DNA of 15,272 nucleotides from a virus. Where the stretch lies: the UHGV virus genome UHGV-0202386; one strand, given 5' to 3'. Position 1 is the stretch's first letter. Every line of letters starts with the position of its first letter. The position numbers were made by a program, and so were the translations under genes. Of the stretch, positions 1-15,149 are shown one piece after another. The notes under the pieces are model-generated. The model saw nothing but the letters and a program-made list of their open reading frames with translations. It was not told the origin of the DNA and searched no databases.

Positions 1-125
1 TCACTGTTGAGGTACATATCAGTAAAGGTCTACCCGGCTTAACGATGGTGGGCTTACCAGAAACAACGGTAAAAGAAGCCCGCGATCGCGTGCGCAGCGC
101 CATTATCAATAGCGGATTTTTATAA
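1..125 (+). pseudogene. comM: comM/yifB 5' fragment, interrupted by the island; frame runs 3 codons into island DNA and stops at TAA 123-125
   Basis: In-frame translation from pos 3 reads [38 protein letters not shown] then FL-stop. This matches the conserved N-terminus of ComM/YifB Mg-chelatase-like ATPases as I recall it. The expected continuation [22 protein letters not shown] is found at the other end of the window. Confidence 0.85.
102..117. repeat. attL core: left copy of the 16-bp junction direct repeat (ATTATCAATAGCGGAT)
   Basis: Same 16-mer with one mismatch at 15134-15149. The left copy is the last stretch of native comM before divergence; the right copy is followed immediately by the comM continuation. 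Confidence 0.65.
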
Positions 126-130
126 ATTAG

Positions 131-240
131 TGTTCTTTGCTGTTTCATAATGTGCCACGTTGTTCGTTATGTTTTTGATTTTTAAACGCATTGCAATTTT
201 TCTTGTTCCAGCTTGTTCCACGTTGTACCCCCTTGTGCAA
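131..240 (+). repeat. Array of about 8 TGTTC/TTGTTC-like motifs with 10-bp periodicity between attL and int
   Basis: TGTTC/TGTTT/TGTGC/TGTTC begin at 131, 141, 151, 161; CTTGTTCCA at 202 and 212, CGTTGTACC at 221, CTTGTGCA at 232. Read directly from the sequence. Confidence 0.6.
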
Positions 241-245
241 TGATC

Positions 246-268
246 GGTGTAGTCACTGGTGTAGTCAT
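246..268 (+). repeat. Tandem decamer GGTGTAGTCA x2 (12-bp spacing), candidate integrase arm-type sites in attL
   Basis: GGTGTAGTCAC 246-256 and GGTGTAGTCAT 258-268. A near-identical tandem pair lies at 15045-15066. Together with TTGTTCCACGTTGT (214-227 / 15013-15026) these form an imperfect direct repeat of about 60 bp just inside both ends. Confidence 0.55.
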
Positions 269-303
269 TTTTTTGCAAAATTGGGGAGCGGGGGAGAATA
301 AAC

Positions 304-1533
304 GTGAGCAGAGCGCTTAACAAACTGAGCGATACATTGTTAAGAAAACTTTATGGTAAGCCAGCGGAGAAAAATACGTTCTATAGCGATGGCGGTAATC
401 TGAGCGTGAAATATTTAACATCAGGTAAATTGACCTGGTACTTCACCTACAGGGCTGGAACGGGAAGGGATACCACACCGGAACGCCTGAAGCTGGGAAA
501 CTATCCCGATCTGAGCCTTAAAGCAGCCAGGGAAAAAGCCGCAAAGTGTCGTGCATGGCTGGCAGAAGGGAAAAACCCACGTCATGAACTGAACTACACT
601 GTGCAGGAAGCGTTAAAACCCGTAACGGTTGGCGATGCGATCAGTTACTGGCTGGAAACGCACGTAAAGGAAAACCGTGTCGATTATGTATGCCTGAAAA
701 GTCGCCTGAATAATCACGTCATACAGCACATCGGTAACATGCCACTGGATAAATGCGAATTACGTCACTGGCTGGCCTGTTTTGACCGGATACGCAAAAA
801 ATCCCCCGTAACGTCTGGTCACATGATGCAGGCGTGTAAACAGGCGCTTAAGTTCTGCCGTAAACGTCGCTACGCAGTCAGTAACGTTCTGGATGATCTC
901 AACGTGGTGGACGTTGGCAAAAAGCCGGGCATAAGCGAACGCGTGCTTAGTAACAAAGAACTGGGCGAATTATTACAGGCGCTGGATAAAAAAATATTCC
1001 CGCCCTACTACAGCGCACTAATCCGCCTCCTGATTGTGTTTGGTTGCCGAACCGGAGAACTGAGGCTGTCGGAGATCAGGGAGTGGGATTTTAAGGAAAT
1101 GCTCTGGACAGTACCGAAGGAGCACAGCAAAACGAAGGTCGCCATATTCAGGCCAATACCGGAAAGCATTTTACCGTTTGTCACACGGCTGGTGGAGCAG
1201 AACCGACACACAGGGCTATTACTCGGGGAACTGAAACAGGAAGCCAGCGTGTCGCAATACGGCAGATTCACGCACAAAAAATTAAACCATCCGCACTGGT
1301 CACTACACGATATACGGCGCACGTTTACCACGATGCTGAATGATTTAGGCGTGGATCCGCATATTGTCGAACAACTCACCGCTCACCAGATGCCAGGGAT
1401 GCAGCGAGTCTATAACCACTCCCGTTATCTCGATGCGAAACGTAATGCGCTGGACATGTGGACAGAGCGGTTAGAGATACTGGCGGGTACTCACGAAAAC
1501 GTAACCACACTGCCAATAGCCAGAGAAATATAA
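304..1533 (+). CDS. int: Tyrosine recombinase / phage integrase (P4-type, with N-terminal arm-binding DUF4102-like region); GTG start
   Basis: 409-aa ORF. N-terminal pattern YSDGGNLSV..LTSGKLTWYFTYR...LKLGNYPDLSLKAAREKAAKCRAWLAEGKNP is typical of P4-family integrase arm domains. C-terminal catalytic signatures GCRTGELR, HWSLHDIRRTF, VYNHSRYLD. RBS-like GGGGGAG upstream of GTG 304. Sits next to attL. Confidence 0.9.
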   Translation: MSRALNKLSDTLLRKLYGKPAEKNTFYSDGGNLSVKYLTSGKLTWYFTYRAGTGRDTTPERLKLGNYPDLSLKAAREKAAKCRAWLAEGKNPRHELNYTVQEALKPVTVGDAISYWLETHVKENRVDYVCLKSRLNNHVIQHIGNMPLDKCELRHWLACFDRIRKKSPVTSGHMMQACKQALKFCRKRRYAVSNVLDDLNVVDVGKKPGISERVLSNKELGELLQALDKKIFPPYYSALIRLLIVFGCRTGELRLSEIREWDFKEMLWTVPKEHSKTKVAIFRPIPESILPFVTRLVEQNRHTGLLLGELKQEASVSQYGRFTHKKLNHPHWSLHDIRRTFTTMLNDLGVDPHIVEQLTAHQMPGMQRVYNHSRYLDAKRNALDMWTERLEILAGTHENVTTLPIAREI

Positions 1534-1554: not shown

Positions 1555-1620
1555 ACGGACACAACGTGGAACAACGAGACACAACGACGAACAACAAGGA
1601 ACAAAATGGGACAAGCGGAT
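1555..1620 (-). repeat. Six copies of GAACAACG-like motif exactly 10 bp apart (reverse complement of the TTGTTC motif) between int and alpA
   Basis: ACAACG at 1561, 1571, 1581; ACAACA at 1591; ACAAAA at 1601; ACAAGC at 1611. ACAACGTGGAACAA (1561-1574) is the exact reverse complement of TTGTTCCACGTTGT found at 214-227 and 15013-15026. Confidence 0.6.
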
Positions 1621-1734: not shown

Positions 1735-1871
1735 TACTACATCACAATGAATTAAAAGTATTTTTATTCTAATTACCCCATATCTGTAAAACGACCGTCA
1801 CCAATATTTGCCATTCATCACTCTAGCGGGAACAATACGACACAATAAGACACCAAATGACTCTTTGAGAA

Positions 1872-2075
1872 ATGACGGAGGCAATAGTGTTAAGCGCTGA
1901 TCGCTTTATACGTGAAAAAGAATGTCAGCAACTTACAGGCCTGAGCCGCTCATGTCGGTATCGCCTGGAGAAGACTGGACAATTCCCATCACGGCGTAAA
2001 CTCGGCGGTCGTTCCGTTGGCTGGTCTTTATCCGAAGTTCTGGCATGGAAGGACAGCCGCGAGGCAGTTCACTAA
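1872..2075 (+). CDS. alpA: AlpA-family phage transcriptional regulator / excisionase-like HTH protein
   Basis: Translation RFIREKECQQLTGLSRSCRYRLEKTGQFPSRRKLGGRSVGWSLSEVLAWK matches the AlpA/Phage_AlpA pattern (..GxSRSTIYRL...FP....LG.RSVGW..SEV..W). Alternative in-frame GTG start at 1887 is preceded by GGAGG at 1877-1881. Confidence 0.8.
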   Translation: MTEAIVLSADRFIREKECQQLTGLSRSCRYRLEKTGQFPSRRKLGGRSVGWSLSEVLAWKDSREAVH

Positions 2076-3938: not shown

Positions 3939-4238
3939 ATGAAACTTAAATATTCTGGCTTAACTGCCAGTGGCAACACTCACCCTAAATTTACGCGCGG
4001 CGATATTTACCGCGACCAGTACGGCGGCACGGTAATGATTAAGGGCGTGGAAGAACGGCGCGTAACCTACCGCCGTGAAGGTTACGAATATGATTGCGTG
4101 ATGCCTGTTTATCAGTTCCGGCGTGATTTTTCTCTGGTACAGACCGCGCCGCATAACGTGTCCACCAGCAACGCCAGGGCACGGGCAAACATCCAGAAGC
4201 TGAAAACCATGATTAACGGATTCAGGGGTAAAAAATGA
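3939..4238 (+). CDS. Hypothetical protein (99 aa), possibly DUF4222-like
   Basis: Motif YRDQYGGTVMIKGVEERRVTYRREGYEYDCVMPVYQFRRDF reminds me of DUF4222 proteins of enterobacterial prophages (memory only). Stop overlaps the primase start. Confidence 0.5.
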   Translation: MKLKYSGLTASGNTHPKFTRGDIYRDQYGGTVMIKGVEERRVTYRREGYEYDCVMPVYQFRRDFSLVQTAPHNVSTSNARARANIQKLKTMINGFRGKK

Positions 4239-6049
4239 AACTGGCACCGAACGTAAAACAGCAGTCACGCGGCATAAAACACAAAGAAACAGAAGTCATT
4301 ATTTTTGCGGGTAGTGATGCCTGGTCACACGCAAAACAATGGCAGGAACATGACGCGCGTATGGCCGGAGATAATGAGCCTCCTGTGTGGCTTGGGGAGC
4401 AGCAGTTATCCGAACTGGATAAGCTGCAAATTGTGCCGGAAGGCAGAAAATCCGTGCGCATATTCAGGGCCGGATATCTTGCGCCAGTAATGATAAAGGC
4501 GATTGGTCAGAAGCTGGCGGCGGCAGGCGTACAGGATGCAAATTTTTATCCTGAGGGTATGCACGGTCAGGAGGTGCAGAACTGGCGCGAATATCTGGCC
4601 CGTGAGCGCCAGAATCTTTCTGATGGTCTGGTGATTCAGCTTCCTGTTAAGAAAAAAACAGAAGACAGCGCCGCACCACTGGCGCTTAACCAGATGGGAG
4701 CAAGCCAGCGCGGCGAAGTTCTCCTGGCACATTATGGCGGTGAACTGGCGATTCATGCCGACTCTGACACTGTTCACCATTACAACGGCGTTGTATGGGA
4801 GCCGATTCAGGATAAAGAGTTACAGCGTGCTATGGCGCAGATTTTCATTGATGCGGAGATCAGCTATTCGCAGAACGCCATTAAATCGGCGGTCGATACC
4901 ATGAAGTTAAGTTTGCCTGTAATGGGGAATACAGCCCGTAACCTGATTGGATTCAGTAACGGGGTATTTGATACCAGAACAGGTAATTTTCGGGAGCATA
5001 ACAAAAACGACTGGTTGTTAATTGCCAGTGAATTACCTTTCAGCCCACCAGCAGAGGGGGAAACGCTGGCAACACATGCGCCGAATTTCTGGAAGTGGTT
5101 ACGCTGCTCGGTGGCAGAGAATGACCGCAAGACGGATCGCGTGCTGGCTGCATTATTCATGGTGCTGGCGAACCGGTACGACTGGCAGTTATTCATTGAG
5201 GTAACAGGTCCAGGGGGAAGTGGTAAAAGCGTGATGGCGGAGATTTGCACTATGCTGGCGGGTAAGGCCAACACAGTATCGGCAAGCATGAAGGCGCTGG
5301 AAGATGCAAGGGAACGCGCGTTAGTGGTTGGCTTTTCGCTGATTATCATGCCGGATATGACCCGCTACGCTGGTGATGGCGCAGGAATTAAGGCCATTAC
5401 AGGCGGTGACAAGGTGGCAATCGACCCGAAGCATAAAGCCCCCTACTCAACACGCATTCAGGCGGTCGTGCTGGCGGTGAACAATAACGCCATGTCATTC
5501 AGTGACCGCAGCGGGGGGATCTCACGTCGTCGGGTGATATTCAATTTTTCGGAGGTTGTACCGGAGAACGAGCGCGACCCCATGCTGGCAGAAAAAATAG
5601 AAGGAGAGCTGGCGGTTGTGATTCGCCATCTGCTTACTCGTTTTTCTGACCAGGACGAAGCTAAACGCCTGCTGTATGAGCAGCAGAAATCAGAAGAAGC
5701 TCTGGTGATAAAACGCGAGGGCGATTCGCTGGTGGACTTCTGTGGCTATCTCATGTCGTCGGTAATGTGTGATGGTCTGTTAGTGGGTAATGCCGAAATT
5801 ATTCCGTTCAGTCCGCGCAGGTATCTTTATCACGCCTATCTGGCATATATGAGGGCACACGGATTCGGTAAACCTGTAACACTGACGCGCTTCGGTAAAG
5901 ATATGCCGGGGGCAATGGCGGAATATGGCAGGGAGTATATAAAACGGAAAACGAAGCACGGTTTGCGTTCAAATGTGACACTGACAGAGGATTCAGAAGA
6001 CTGGATGCCATCATGTGCATCGGTCACAAATGACGACAGCAAAAATTAA
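4235..6049 (+). CDS. Replication initiator: P4-alpha-like primase / SF3 helicase (Walker A GPGGSGKS)
   Basis: 604-aa ORF. Walker A in VTGPGGSGKSVMAE, Walker B-like LIIMPDM, sensor AVVLAVNNN. Followed directly by TGTTCACC iterons, as for P4 alpha and its ori. Confidence 0.8.
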   Translation: MKLAPNVKQQSRGIKHKETEVIIFAGSDAWSHAKQWQEHDARMAGDNEPPVWLGEQQLSELDKLQIVPEGRKSVRIFRAGYLAPVMIKAIGQKLAAAGVQDANFYPEGMHGQEVQNWREYLARERQNLSDGLVIQLPVKKKTEDSAAPLALNQMGASQRGEVLLAHYGGELAIHADSDTVHHYNGVVWEPIQDKELQRAMAQIFIDAEISYSQNAIKSAVDTMKLSLPVMGNTARNLIGFSNGVFDTRTGNFREHNKNDWLLIASELPFSPPAEGETLATHAPNFWKWLRCSVAENDRKTDRVLAALFMVLANRYDWQLFIEVTGPGGSGKSVMAEICTMLAGKANTVSASMKALEDARERALVVGFSLIIMPDMTRYAGDGAGIKAITGGDKVAIDPKHKAPYSTRIQAVVLAVNNNAMSFSDRSGGISRRRVIFNFSEVVPENERDPMLAEKIEGELAVVIRHLLTRFSDQDEAKRLLYEQQKSEEALVIKREGDSLVDFCGYLMSSVMCDGLLVGNAEIIPFSPRRYLYHAYLAYMRAHGFGKPVTLTRFGKDMPGAMAEYGREYIKRKTKHGLRSNVTLTEDSEDWMPSCASVTNDDSKN

Positions 6050-6062
6050 ACTTATGGAATAA

Positions 6063-6293
6063 CTGTTCACCACTGTTCACCCTGTTATAAATATCTTTTA
6101 TATCAGTACATTATAGGGTGAACAGTTATTTGTGAACTGTTCACCAAACTATTCACTGTTCACCTTTTTGATTATTTATTGAGCTTTAAGGGTGAACAGT
6201 GGTGAACAGTTGGTGAATAGTTTTTGTGAAACTGTTCACCCCTTAACGTTATGAATAAAAAGGGAAAATCTCAAAAGGTGAACAGGTGAAGGG
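6063..6293. repeat. Origin of replication: about 11 copies of the 9-mer CTGTTCACC (P4 type-I iteron TGTTCACC) in both orientations
   Basis: Plus-orientation copies at 6063, 6073, 6137, 6156, 6232; reverse-orientation GGTGAACAG at 6117, 6191, 6201, 6277, with variants at 6212 and 6285. AT-rich spacers. Lies immediately downstream of the primase. Confidence 0.8.
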
Positions 6294-7040: not shown

Positions 7041-7571
7041 ATGACAACGCTGACCATTAACCGGAAGCCGAAAGGCATTTACGGCACGCCGCAGAAAACG
7101 ACGCAGGCGGCGCAAGAGCAGGATAAAACCACATCGGTGCATAAAGTGATACCCGGCAATCAGAACGCACAGCAGAAGCCCACAGGGGCGACACCGTGGC
7201 AGCATATGACCAAAAGGCAGCGCAAAAACCGCCGACGCGTTAACCGCCTCACTGAGATGTGGCCTGACTTATTCAGCCATAAAGCACCGAAGCCGCTTAA
7301 GGTGGGGATATTCGACGACCTGATGCAGGATATCGCCGTCAGGGGGCTGGCATTCGGGTCGGGGGTATTACGTGCGACGCTGGCATCCTATGCGCAGTCT
7401 CCGCGCTATTACCGCGCCCTGATAGCTGGTGGCGCACGTTACGACCTGAAGGGCCAGCCATGTGGGGAAGTGACACCACAGGAACAGCAGGAGGCAGAAA
7501 CACGGCTGATGGTGCTGAATGAGAAGCACAAGCGCCAGCGCCGGGCAGCAAAGGGGGATACATGCCAGTGA
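7041..7571 (+). CDS. ProQ/FinO-domain RNA-binding protein (FinO-like RNA chaperone)
   Basis: PKPLKVGIFDDLMQDIAVRG...LRATLASYAQSPRYYRALIAGGARYDLKGQPCGEVTPQEQQEA aligns by eye to the ProQ/FinO core (PLKIGIFQDL...[35 protein letters not shown]). Lys/Gln-rich N-terminal extension. RBS AGGGGAAGG. Confidence 0.8.
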   Translation: MTTLTINRKPKGIYGTPQKTTQAAQEQDKTTSVHKVIPGNQNAQQKPTGATPWQHMTKRQRKNRRRVNRLTEMWPDLFSHKAPKPLKVGIFDDLMQDIAVRGLAFGSGVLRATLASYAQSPRYYRALIAGGARYDLKGQPCGEVTPQEQQEAETRLMVLNEKHKRQRRAAKGDTCQ

Positions 7572-7810: not shown

Positions 7811-7820
7811 AGCGATAAAG

Positions 7821-7847
7821 GCCCGGATTTTTTCCGGGTCTTTTTTC
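7821..7847 (+). terminator. Rho-independent terminator ending the early/replication operon
   Basis: GCCCGGA-TTTTT-TCCGGGTC hairpin (7821-7840) followed by TTTTTT (7841-7847). Confidence 0.8.
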
Positions 7848-7864
7848 AGGTTTTGTAAATTATT

Positions 7865-7890
7865 TGTTCGTGGTTGTTCCAGGTTGTTCG
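7865..7890 (+). repeat. Three TTGTTC motifs exactly 10 bp apart, upstream of the capsid operon
   Basis: TTGTTC at 7865, 7875, 7885 (TTGTTCGTGG / TTGTTCCAGG / TTGTTCGGTG). Same motif family as the arrays at 131-240, 1555-1620 and 15001-15030. Confidence 0.6.
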
Positions 7891-7980
7891 GTGATTCTGG
7901 TTGATGTTTACATACTGATTTTTATGTATATGTTGGCGTGTGGCACTCAGACGTGAGCCGCCACAATGCCGCCTGATCCC

Positions 7981-14080: not shown

Positions 14081-14370
14081 CGAGAATGAGCGAAACCGAA
14101 CTACTAAAAATAATCCGTCGCGTTACCGGAATCAGCCAGGAAGCAGGCAAACAGGAGGCCACGCAGCCGGACAGCGTGATAGCCGAAAATTACGCGCGTG
14201 TGGTGGCTGAGGTGATGCGCCGTGACGGTATCGAGCTTAACGGCGTGGATATACGCAATATACGCACCAGAGTTCTGGAGTTGTTGTCATATCGTCGCCG
14301 CGTGGAGATGTACCAGGAGAAAGAAAAAATTACTTACCACTGGAAGAAGCCGGAGCGGTTACGACGTTAA
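14077..14370 (+). CDS. Hypothetical protein (97 aa) translationally coupled to terL
   Basis: ATG 14077 overlaps the terL stop (ATGA). Alternative ATG at 14086. Unknown family. Confidence 0.5.
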   Translation: MTRMSETELLKIIRRVTGISQEAGKQEATQPDSVIAENYARVVAEVMRRDGIELNGVDIRNIRTRVLELLSYRRRVEMYQEKEKITYHWKKPERLRR

Positions 14371-14376
14371 CTTGTG

Positions 14377-14426
14377 GTGACATACCGTGACGGAGAGTGA
14401 CAACCAGTGACACACAGTGACAAAAA
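14377..14426 (+). repeat. Five GTGAC(A) motifs at exactly 10-bp spacing (one face of the helix)
   Basis: GTGAC starts at 14377, 14387, 14397, 14407, 14417 (GTGACATACC / GTGACGGAGA / GTGACAACCA / GTGACACACA / GTGACAAAAA). Begins 7 bp after the last stop codon. Confidence 0.7.
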
Positions 14427-14445: not shown

Positions 14446-14472
14446 GGGTGTTTAATACCCCCCGTTTTTTTT
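14446..14472 (+). terminator. Weak candidate terminator of the late operon (short stem then T8)
   Basis: GGGTG..TACCC stem (about 5 bp), then CCCG and TTTTTTTT at 14465-14472. A larger GGTATT/AATACC stem (14430-14435 / 14454-14459) encloses it. Stem is weak and separated from the T-run. Confidence 0.35.
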
Positions 14473-14483
14473 CGTGTGGTGCA

Positions 14484-14498
14484 TGGTCAAAATGACCA
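14484..14498. promoter_or_regulatory. Perfect 6-3-6 palindrome TGGTCA-AAA-TGACCA (operator-like)
   Basis: Read directly; typical geometry for a dimeric HTH-protein binding site. Confidence 0.45.
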
Positions 14499-14624
14499 CG
14501 GAGAAGATACGCACCGAAGCAGAACAATTACCGTAGGTTAAAGCGACAGTATTCACACCAGCAACCTGATTATCAATTTTCAGCCGTTCGGTGGCATCAC
14601 TGGCCCCATTTTCCTGATGGGGTT

Positions 14625-14676
14625 GCGGGTTATTTGGGGGGGATTTGCGGGTTATTTTGAATGTCTCGCGGGTTAC
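14625..14676 (+). repeat. Three direct copies of GCGGGTTA at 22-bp spacing
   Basis: Copies at 14625-14632, 14647-14654, 14669-14676, preceded by a CCCCAT/ATGGGG hairpin (14604-14622). Confidence 0.6.
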
Positions 14677-14752
14677 GCTTTGGCTAATATTCAAACGCAT
14701 CATTTTTTAACCCATTGATATTAAATAATAAAAAACACTTAGCAAGCGAAGA

Positions 14753-14777
14753 TAACCCGCTAACCCGCATAACCCGC
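14753..14777 (-). repeat. Three tandem copies of TAACCCGC (reverse complement of GCGGGTTA) at 8-9 bp spacing
   Basis: 14753-14760, 14761-14768, 14770-14777. Forms an inverted arrangement with the 14625-14676 array around a 76-bp AT-rich centre (14677-14752). Confidence 0.6.
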
Positions 14778-14785
14778 ACTGTTTT

Positions 14786-15000: not shown

Positions 15001-15066
15001 CTTGTGTCTATTTGTTCCACGTTGTTTCATACAGTGCACCGAACGGTGTAGTTACTGGTGTAGTCA
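15001..15066 (+). repeat. Right-arm copy of the terminal repeat: 3 phased TTGT motifs, TTGTTCCACGTTGT, and tandem GGTGTAGTTA/GGTGTAGTCA
   Basis: TTGT at 15002, 15012, 15022. TTGTTCCACGTTGT 15013-15026 is identical to 214-227. GGTGTAGTTACTGGTGTAGTCAT 15045-15067 versus left GGTGTAGTCACTGGTGTAGTCAT 246-268. Confidence 0.6.
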
Positions 15067-15133
15067 TTTTGCGATTTTTAAAGTTATCTAAGATATTATT
15101 TGTCATTTAAATTCAATTGGTTATGAGTACTTG

Positions 15134-15149
15134 ATTATAAATAGCGGAT
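15134..15149. repeat. attR core: right copy of the 16-bp junction repeat (ATTATAAATAGCGGAT)
   Basis: 15 of 16 identical to 102-117. comM sequence resumes in frame from here. Confidence 0.65.

Follow-up and report, generated by a model that had tools for sequence, protein, structure and literature searches.

Six helically phased ACAA units between int and alpA of a capsid-forming satellite, a candidate operator for AlpA

The window, i.e., the whole stretch of 15,272 nucleotides analysed here (virus genome UHGV-0202386), is a cf-PICI, a capsid-forming phage satellite of about 15 kb lodged in comM/yifB. Its main features are collected in Table 1. The genes for SSB and for a ProQ/FinO protein come after that of the primase-helicase, and the HK97-like packaging module comprises capsid, protease, portal, connector, HNH, TerS, and TerL genes; cf-PICIs such as EcCIEDL933 have the same layout. 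The ProQ/FinO-domain RNA-binding protein is encoded at 7041-7571, between the replication and packaging modules. AlpA, a small winged-HTH protein of the RDF type, matches PF05930 (E 3e-18), the PHROG family 'excisionase and transcriptional regulator', and PDB 8C3T, an AlpA family protein, and is 42% identical to P4 Vis. Relatives of the int-alpA module were found in 1114 of 5426 complete E. coli genomes, 851 of which cover most of the query, and the relatives that were fetched are inserted in comM, abgR, roxA, tqsA, or cspD. A search of a phage database returned no match, and a scan of genome contigs using a single Int protein as query found nothing.

Table 1. Features of the island, with positions in the window
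Feature	Position	Strand	Remarks
att core identity block	108-117 and 15140-15149	+ (108..117)	AATAGCGGAT; comM; read directly from the sequence
P' arm array, core-proximal	130..169	+	four to five phased nTGTnn units
P' arm array B	202..241	+	four phased TTGT units, directly abutting the doubled 12-mer
Doubled 12-bp motif, P' arm	246..269	+	GGTGTAGTCAct x2; probable Int arm-type sites
int	304..1533	+	P4-type tyrosine integrase; Arm-DNA-bind_3 and catalytic domain
Six-unit array	1556..1615	-	head-to-tail; consensus nTTGTKYCnn (minus strand), ACAA (plus strand)
Predicted alpA promoter	1808..1836	+	TTGCCA-17-AACAAT; consensus match only; -35 invariant in 7 relatives
alpA-proximal mini-array	1828..1854	-	three phased units GAACAAT / GACACAAT / GACACC
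alpA	1872..2075	+	67-aa Phage_AlpA winged-helix protein; candidate array binder
D5/P4-alpha-like primase-helicase	4235-6049		
Late-promoter array	7853..7892	+	four phased TTGT units
Predicted capsid-operon promoter	7907..7934	+	TTTACA-16-TATGTT
P arm array	15001..15030	+	three phased TTGT units
Doubled 12-bp motif, P arm	15045..15068	+	probable Int arm-type sites

The stop of int (1533) and the start of alpA (1872) bound a spacer of 338 bp, in which the six-unit array begins 23 bp past the int stop. As the preliminary description had observed, ACAA starts at 1561, 1571, 1581, 1591, 1601, and 1611, with an exact spacing of 10 bp; Tandem Repeats Finder reports period 10 over 1561-1604. Read on the minus strand, the units are GTTGTGTCCG, GTTGTTCCAC, GTTGTGTCTC, GTTGTTCGTC, TTTGTTCCTT, and CTTGTCCCAT, i.e., six direct repeats one helical turn apart and the longest run of the TTGTKYC word in the window. 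This array is real and non-random: the longest phased ACAA/TTGT run is six, against three in 2000 first-order Markov shuffles of the window, a length that only 10 of them reached and none exceeded. It was also described as the reverse complement of the arrays near the att ends, and this holds: 27 nt pair with 15002-15028 at 89% complementarity, and 35 nt pair with 131-165 at 71%. Conservation was assessed in seven E. coli relatives from four insertion sites. In the four units that they share, 15 of the 16 ACAA columns are invariant, versus 5 of the 20 spacer columns, and two subtypes differ in unit number by whole 10-bp steps. Judged from this alignment, selection acts on both the ACAA cores and their 10-bp phase.

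The array is restricted to the E. coli/Shigella clade and absent from the other AlpA-bearing clades; hence, AlpA does not generally depend on it to function. Between the array and the att core there are 1.4 kb, with the entire int gene among them, and the predicted alpA promoter is about 220-290 bp downstream of the array. Manual reading and promoter prediction gave nothing convincing or conserved as a promoter directly flanking it on either strand. The same spacer contains a hairpin (1713-1734) that has a T-run on the minus strand and compensatory stem changes in the relatives, which would imply a leftward transcript ending there, or a bidirectional terminator. A LexA box was considered in the conserved block at 1645-1700 and rejected, as the sequence reads CTG-N10-CAC, not CAG; published work, in which alpA is not SOS-dependent, also speaks against it (PMC6092414).

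The TTGTKYC word recurs at 10-bp phase in both att arms, in the int-alpA spacer, at the alpA promoter, and at the capsid-operon promoter, with more than 25 phased units in total. In a neutral k-mer count, a single non-trivial 5-mer, AACAA/TTGTT, has two or more copies in each of the four regulatory regions, where it is 6.7-fold enriched. The att arm copies abut the doubled 12-mers. Two of the places were not on the list of the preliminary description, i.e., the alpA-proximal mini-array, which overlaps the predicted -10 and +1 of alpA, and the late-promoter array. The latter is preceded by a terminator (7818-7844), ends 14 bp before the predicted late promoter, of which it covers -50 to -90, and lies 7.7 kb from the att core; it is invariant across the aligned cf-PICIs, while its flanks have diverged. 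The promoter itself is kept as TTTAC(A/T)-16-TAnnTT in most of the cf-PICI variants examined. With this distribution, the suggestion that the motif marks a regulon stands in outline.

Other sequences were noticed around these places. A second sequence type (L001, L002, and L004) has a 10-nt insertion beside the alpA-proximal phased units (window 1811-1830). Just past the predicted late promoter, a leader (GTGGCACTCAGACGTGAGCCGCCAC, 7940-7964; L099-L159) is invariant in essentially all the cf-PICI variants examined and folds as a 5' hairpin (-13.8 kcal/mol, z -3.1). At 14377-14424, past the last packaging-module ORF, which stops at 14370, and ahead of a terminator (14446-14470), five GTGAC units follow each other with exact 10-bp spacing; their word is different from TTGTYC, a difference that the preliminary description had not noted, and EcCIEDL933 has no such array at the corresponding place. 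Further on, three copies of TTGCGGGTTAT and three of the inverted ATAACCCGC, at 14623-14657 and 14752-14778, surround the 5' end of a minus-strand ORF of 83 aa (14452-14703) that has no Pfam or PHROG match. Their arrangement looks like an operator or an iteron set.

The att arms carry another repeat, the doubled 12-mer, whose consensus in each arm is GGTGTAGTYAnt x2. It is located at about -88 and +145 from the core, its exact copies are found nowhere else in the window, and none accompanies the six-unit array. It is equivalent to the doubled TGTATTGC motif that forms the arm sites of HE-PICIs at -81 and +132 (PMC10111431), and P4 has matching pairs of 12-bp repeats, which its annotation calls 'attP arm sequence repeats'. 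Those arm sites occupy the same att arms as the phased arrays, but their role is that of the doubled 12-mer and not that of the 10-bp TTGTYC units. Among 80 related loci, the doubled motif varies by clade. In Xenorhabdus (L033-L047), two groups of loci differ in it (GTGGGGTAAT vs TGTATAAACA), and the N-terminal domain of their Int is 61% identical between the groups and 92% within them; AlpA is 94-95% identical across the groups and the neighbouring array is the same. These loci amount to a clean natural domain-swap experiment for the arm specificity of Int. Since the doubled motif and the Int N-terminal domain switch together with the array constant, the doubled 12-mer reads as the Int arm site and the array as something read otherwise. 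We conclude that the doubled 12-mer is probably an Int arm-type site and that the 10-bp array, which does not co-vary with the arm-binding domain and whose six-unit copy is outside the att arms, probably is not. The statement that the motif is "not only" an integrase arm site is thus half right: given an internal copy, the motif does not belong to the intasome alone, but it is probably no arm site at all.

The same organization was found in a wider survey. The P' arm presents, in this order, the core, a phased array, an IHF-like TTGAT site, a second phased array, the doubled 12-mer, and int, and this layout recurs from E. coli to Shewanella. At 75 loci outside the clade of the window, GTT-GTT distances peak sharply at 10, 20, and 30 bp, in counts that are inflated by related sequences. 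Strict runs of at least three exactly phased GTT occur in the P' arm at 23% of the loci, versus 1.5% of shuffles; as strict runs are found in only this fraction, the family-wide claim rests on the aggregate 10/20/30-bp peaks. In P4 and CP4-57, the P' arm has a 10-bp-phased TCC/GTCC run followed by the doubled 12-mer, and P4 has GGAC words just upstream of vis. Related islands in which a stretch of 3 kb showed no AlpA gene have phased GTT arm arrays as well.

Several details of these loci deserve a mention of their own. An inverted copy of the 12-mer is located at or just upstream of the int start in CP4-57 (L161, 740-840) and P4 (L009, 3940-4010). In the clade with 53-55% Int identity (L020-L035), a hairpin lies about 40 bp upstream of alpA and is followed by a T-run; its stem co-varies and contains the Shine-Dalgarno sequence, and its loop has, in most loci, two GAAC words 10 bp apart. 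It looks like an attenuator or a translational switch. In the Xenorhabdus/Proteus/Klebsiella clade (L033-L075), the int promoter region carries a LexA-box-like CTGTATATTGTTCCAG, and some of the arrays resemble PhoP boxes (TGTTTA-N5-GTTTA).

What could bind these arrays? RDFs occupy tandem repeats that are spaced by one DNA turn, in a head-to-tail arrangement; each single site is of low specificity, but cooperativity is strong. Some of them (Apl, Cox, and Vis) use similar arrays to control promoters at a distance from att as well (PMC7498355). AlpA has been called the master regulator of Gram-negative PICIs and cf-PICIs; it drives excision, Pint being unchanged, and activates its own promoter (PMC6092414, PMC11773190, PMC10803314). 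As it acts on both excision and its own promoter, the published genetics require AlpA sites at two places, and the phased TTGTT word is the only motif common to the att arms and the alpA upstream region. On account of the RDF geometry, the mapped TorI sites discussed below, the identity with Vis, and these genetics, we assign the arrays to AlpA. The doubled 12-mer tracking the Int N-terminal domain, the P' arm module of P4 and CP4-57 with the GGAC words near vis, the selection on cores and phase, and the invariance of the late-promoter array speak for the same assignment. We lean, with some reserve, towards the six-unit array being an operator that AlpA would occupy cooperatively, doubling as excision factor (RDF) and transcription regulator much like Vis, Cox, Apl, and TorI; both AlpA as the binder and the direction of its regulatory effect are what we infer from the sequences and from these analogies.

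In the mechanism that we propose, one AlpA monomer would occupy each TTGTYC word and, because the words are one helical turn apart, the monomers would line up head-to-tail on one face of the DNA, giving a bent filament. In the att arms, where the doubled Int arm sites and the IHF-like site are close by, such filaments would give the excisive intasome its shape, and the late genes would be turned on by a filament lying at -50 to -90 of the capsid-operon promoter. The six-unit array, together with the three weaker units over the alpA -10, would provide feedback of AlpA on its own gene, the long, good array filling first and the proximal one at high AlpA levels. On the most economical reading, the six-unit array is probably the main site at which AlpA loads to regulate its own gene, in concert with the weak proximal units; a further role may be to shield alpA from transcription reading through from int.

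Some observations sit less easily with the assignment to AlpA. The combination of a distant array with proximal units over the alpA -10 has a geometry that would predict repression, against the positive autoregulation that is reported. GTTCC/GTGTC units accompany SRSCRY helices and GTTCG units CRTTRY helices, and yet the identical late-promoter array is found in cf-PICIs whose AlpA recognition helices are of four very different types (LSRSCRY, VCRTTRY, LGRRHRS, and LSRSTRF), so that either specificity is shared or loose, or another factor binds. Two Arg are kept in the recognition helix of all four types. This sharing fits equally well a core specificity common to the four, which we infer, and a different binder. 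In EcCICFT073, AlpA has no effect on Pint despite the arrays in that arm (PMC6092414). The confinement of the six-unit array to one clade and the arm arrays of islands lacking an AlpA gene within 3 kb weigh in the same direction. As for the P. aeruginosa AlpA antiterminator, we set it aside as a model: it is larger (contact residues up to 142), has a Q-like fold, and uses a single GGGACG element.

Other explanations were weighed against this assignment. If the phased units were a second class of integrase-binding site, through which Int would regulate itself and repress alpA and the late genes, the arrays could be expected to adjoin the doubled motif in the two att arms and to travel with int, as they do; moreover, P4 Int and KplE1 IntS do repress their own promoters (for IntS, PMC2951348). 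We nevertheless judge it improbable, given the Xenorhabdus loci, where the array does not follow the switch of the Int N-terminal domain and doubled motif, a number of units far beyond what an Int tetramer could use, and the position of the late array, ill-suited to repression. The preliminary description had also thought of a secondary binding region for the primase-helicase, analogous to the P4 crr. The island does encode a D5/P4-alpha-like primase, and the array word has TGTTC in common with TGTTCACC, the type-1 iteron annotated in the P4 record; the P4 ori/crr iterons are short repeats too, but they differ in word and location. Nine exact copies of TGTTCACC lie elsewhere (6064-6284), where they form two inverted clusters right behind the primase gene and are the genuine P4-type iterons of the island's replication origin; at up to one mismatch, TGTTCACC has no match in 1555-1620. 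Besides, the arm and int-alpA arrays are independent of the cognate primase, being kept in the O157 PICI, which has a RepA-type helicase, AAAGTGAGG iterons, and no TGTTCACC, and in EcCIEDL933, which has a DUF927 primase. This proposal was rejected, and its probability is close to negligible. Hardly more credible is a role of the repeat as RNA, in the int 3' UTR, as a platform for the ProQ/FinO protein, Hfq, or Rho. It draws on the location of the array between the int stop and the next hairpin (1713-1734), on the ProQ/FinO protein of the island, and on P4 Vis, which reportedly also binds RNA. Such a role is unlikely: the array does not fold on either strand (z +0.9 and +1.2), and Rfam has no match in it, its only hits being spurious miRNA matches on the ori palindromes. 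The word is, furthermore, present in both orientations and in untranscribed positions upstream of promoters, and a phase of 10 bp reflects the DNA helix. The RNA element was rejected as well.

The arrays might also be bound by a trans-acting factor other than AlpA, such as a host winged-helix response regulator of the OmpR/PhoB type (TorR, ArcA, or PhoP, which use direct repeats of 10-11 bp), another island protein, or the inducer of alpA from the helper phage, which the literature reports as still to be found (PMC6092414). In favour of such a factor, the YGTTY core hardly changes from one Int clade, host, or AlpA type to another, and the islands with arrays and no AlpA gene found nearby point the same way. 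The units of one clade, YGTTCAT(A/G), resemble the tor-box decamer. On the other hand, the arrays adjoin alpA or vis in several clades, as autoregulation predicts, the experimentally mapped sites with such a motif and phase belong to the RDF TorI, the exact 10-bp period is unlike that of the 11-bp ArcA or PhoP boxes, and the hosts of the elements range from Enterobacterales to Shewanella. All told, a factor other than AlpA is unlikely. A bolder form of it, in which the YGTTY code would be a docking site for the helper-phage inducer or for a host response regulator that switches on Gram-negative PICIs, rather than for AlpA alone, is distinctly unlikely; it would explain how one late array serves four types of AlpA helix, and it would make the arrays the target in cis that has long been sought for PICI induction. 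There remains the view that no dedicated protein is involved, the array being intrinsically curved or flexible DNA or what is left of an old, decaying att arm. DNA can be bent by phased AA/TT steps, and the high complementarity to the attR arm array and the restriction to one clade would suit this view. A passive array of this kind is highly improbable: the spacers drift, but the core never varies in its G and C, length differences between relatives are multiples of the 10-bp unit, and the six units have no doubled 12-mer beside them.

If AlpA is the reader, the arrays are testable candidate AlpA operators at four places, i.e., both att arms, the alpA control region, and the capsid-operon promoter, and these candidates separate cleanly from the integrase arm sites and the replication iterons. 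One small protein and one loose, helically phased word would then couple excision, the expression of alpA itself, and the activation of late genes, which would explain the shuffling of int/alpA modules and packaging modules between satellites. In the PICI and cf-PICI literature that we searched, no DNA target is defined for AlpA. A dual-purpose RDF operator array is of a known kind; in that same literature, we did not find one described for the AlpA of PICIs or cf-PICIs.

Among known systems, lambda Xis is instructive for its geometry: on X1-X1.5-X2, winged-helix monomers sit head-to-tail at about 10-bp spacing beside an Int arm site, and the arm is bent. Unlike the arrays of the window, it has only three sites, in one arm, and no transcriptional targets elsewhere. 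Closer in use are 186 Apl, P2 Cox, and P4 Vis, which act on direct repeats spaced by one turn at att and at distant promoters, including that of the RDF's own operon. Their binding is cooperative and of low specificity, and Vis is a true homologue of the AlpA of the window. Their words differ from that of the window; Apl sites are 6-mers and the P2 cox boxes read TTAAAG(G/C)CA. The array at the late operon of a capsid-forming satellite has no counterpart in these three systems. Moreover, they mostly repress, whereas AlpA is a reported activator (PMC6092414), whose binding in the window we postulate. The nearest likeness in the DNA itself is offered by TorI of KplE1 (CPS-53), a small winged-helix RDF that represses Pint. 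Its similarity to the AlpA of the window is distant, with 26% identity over 42 aa and a Pfam AlpA match that does not reach the threshold, and its sites are known only in attL, whereas the window has further arrays 1.4 kb and 7.7 kb from the core. The TorI sites mapped in attL (GTTCG, GTCCG, and GATCG; PMC2951348) are separate from the arm-type sites of Int and, in the K-12 sequence, three of them stand at exact 10-bp phase just upstream of the -35 of intS. They have the core and the phase of the arrays in the window (TTGTTCG, TTGTTCC, and TTGTCCC).
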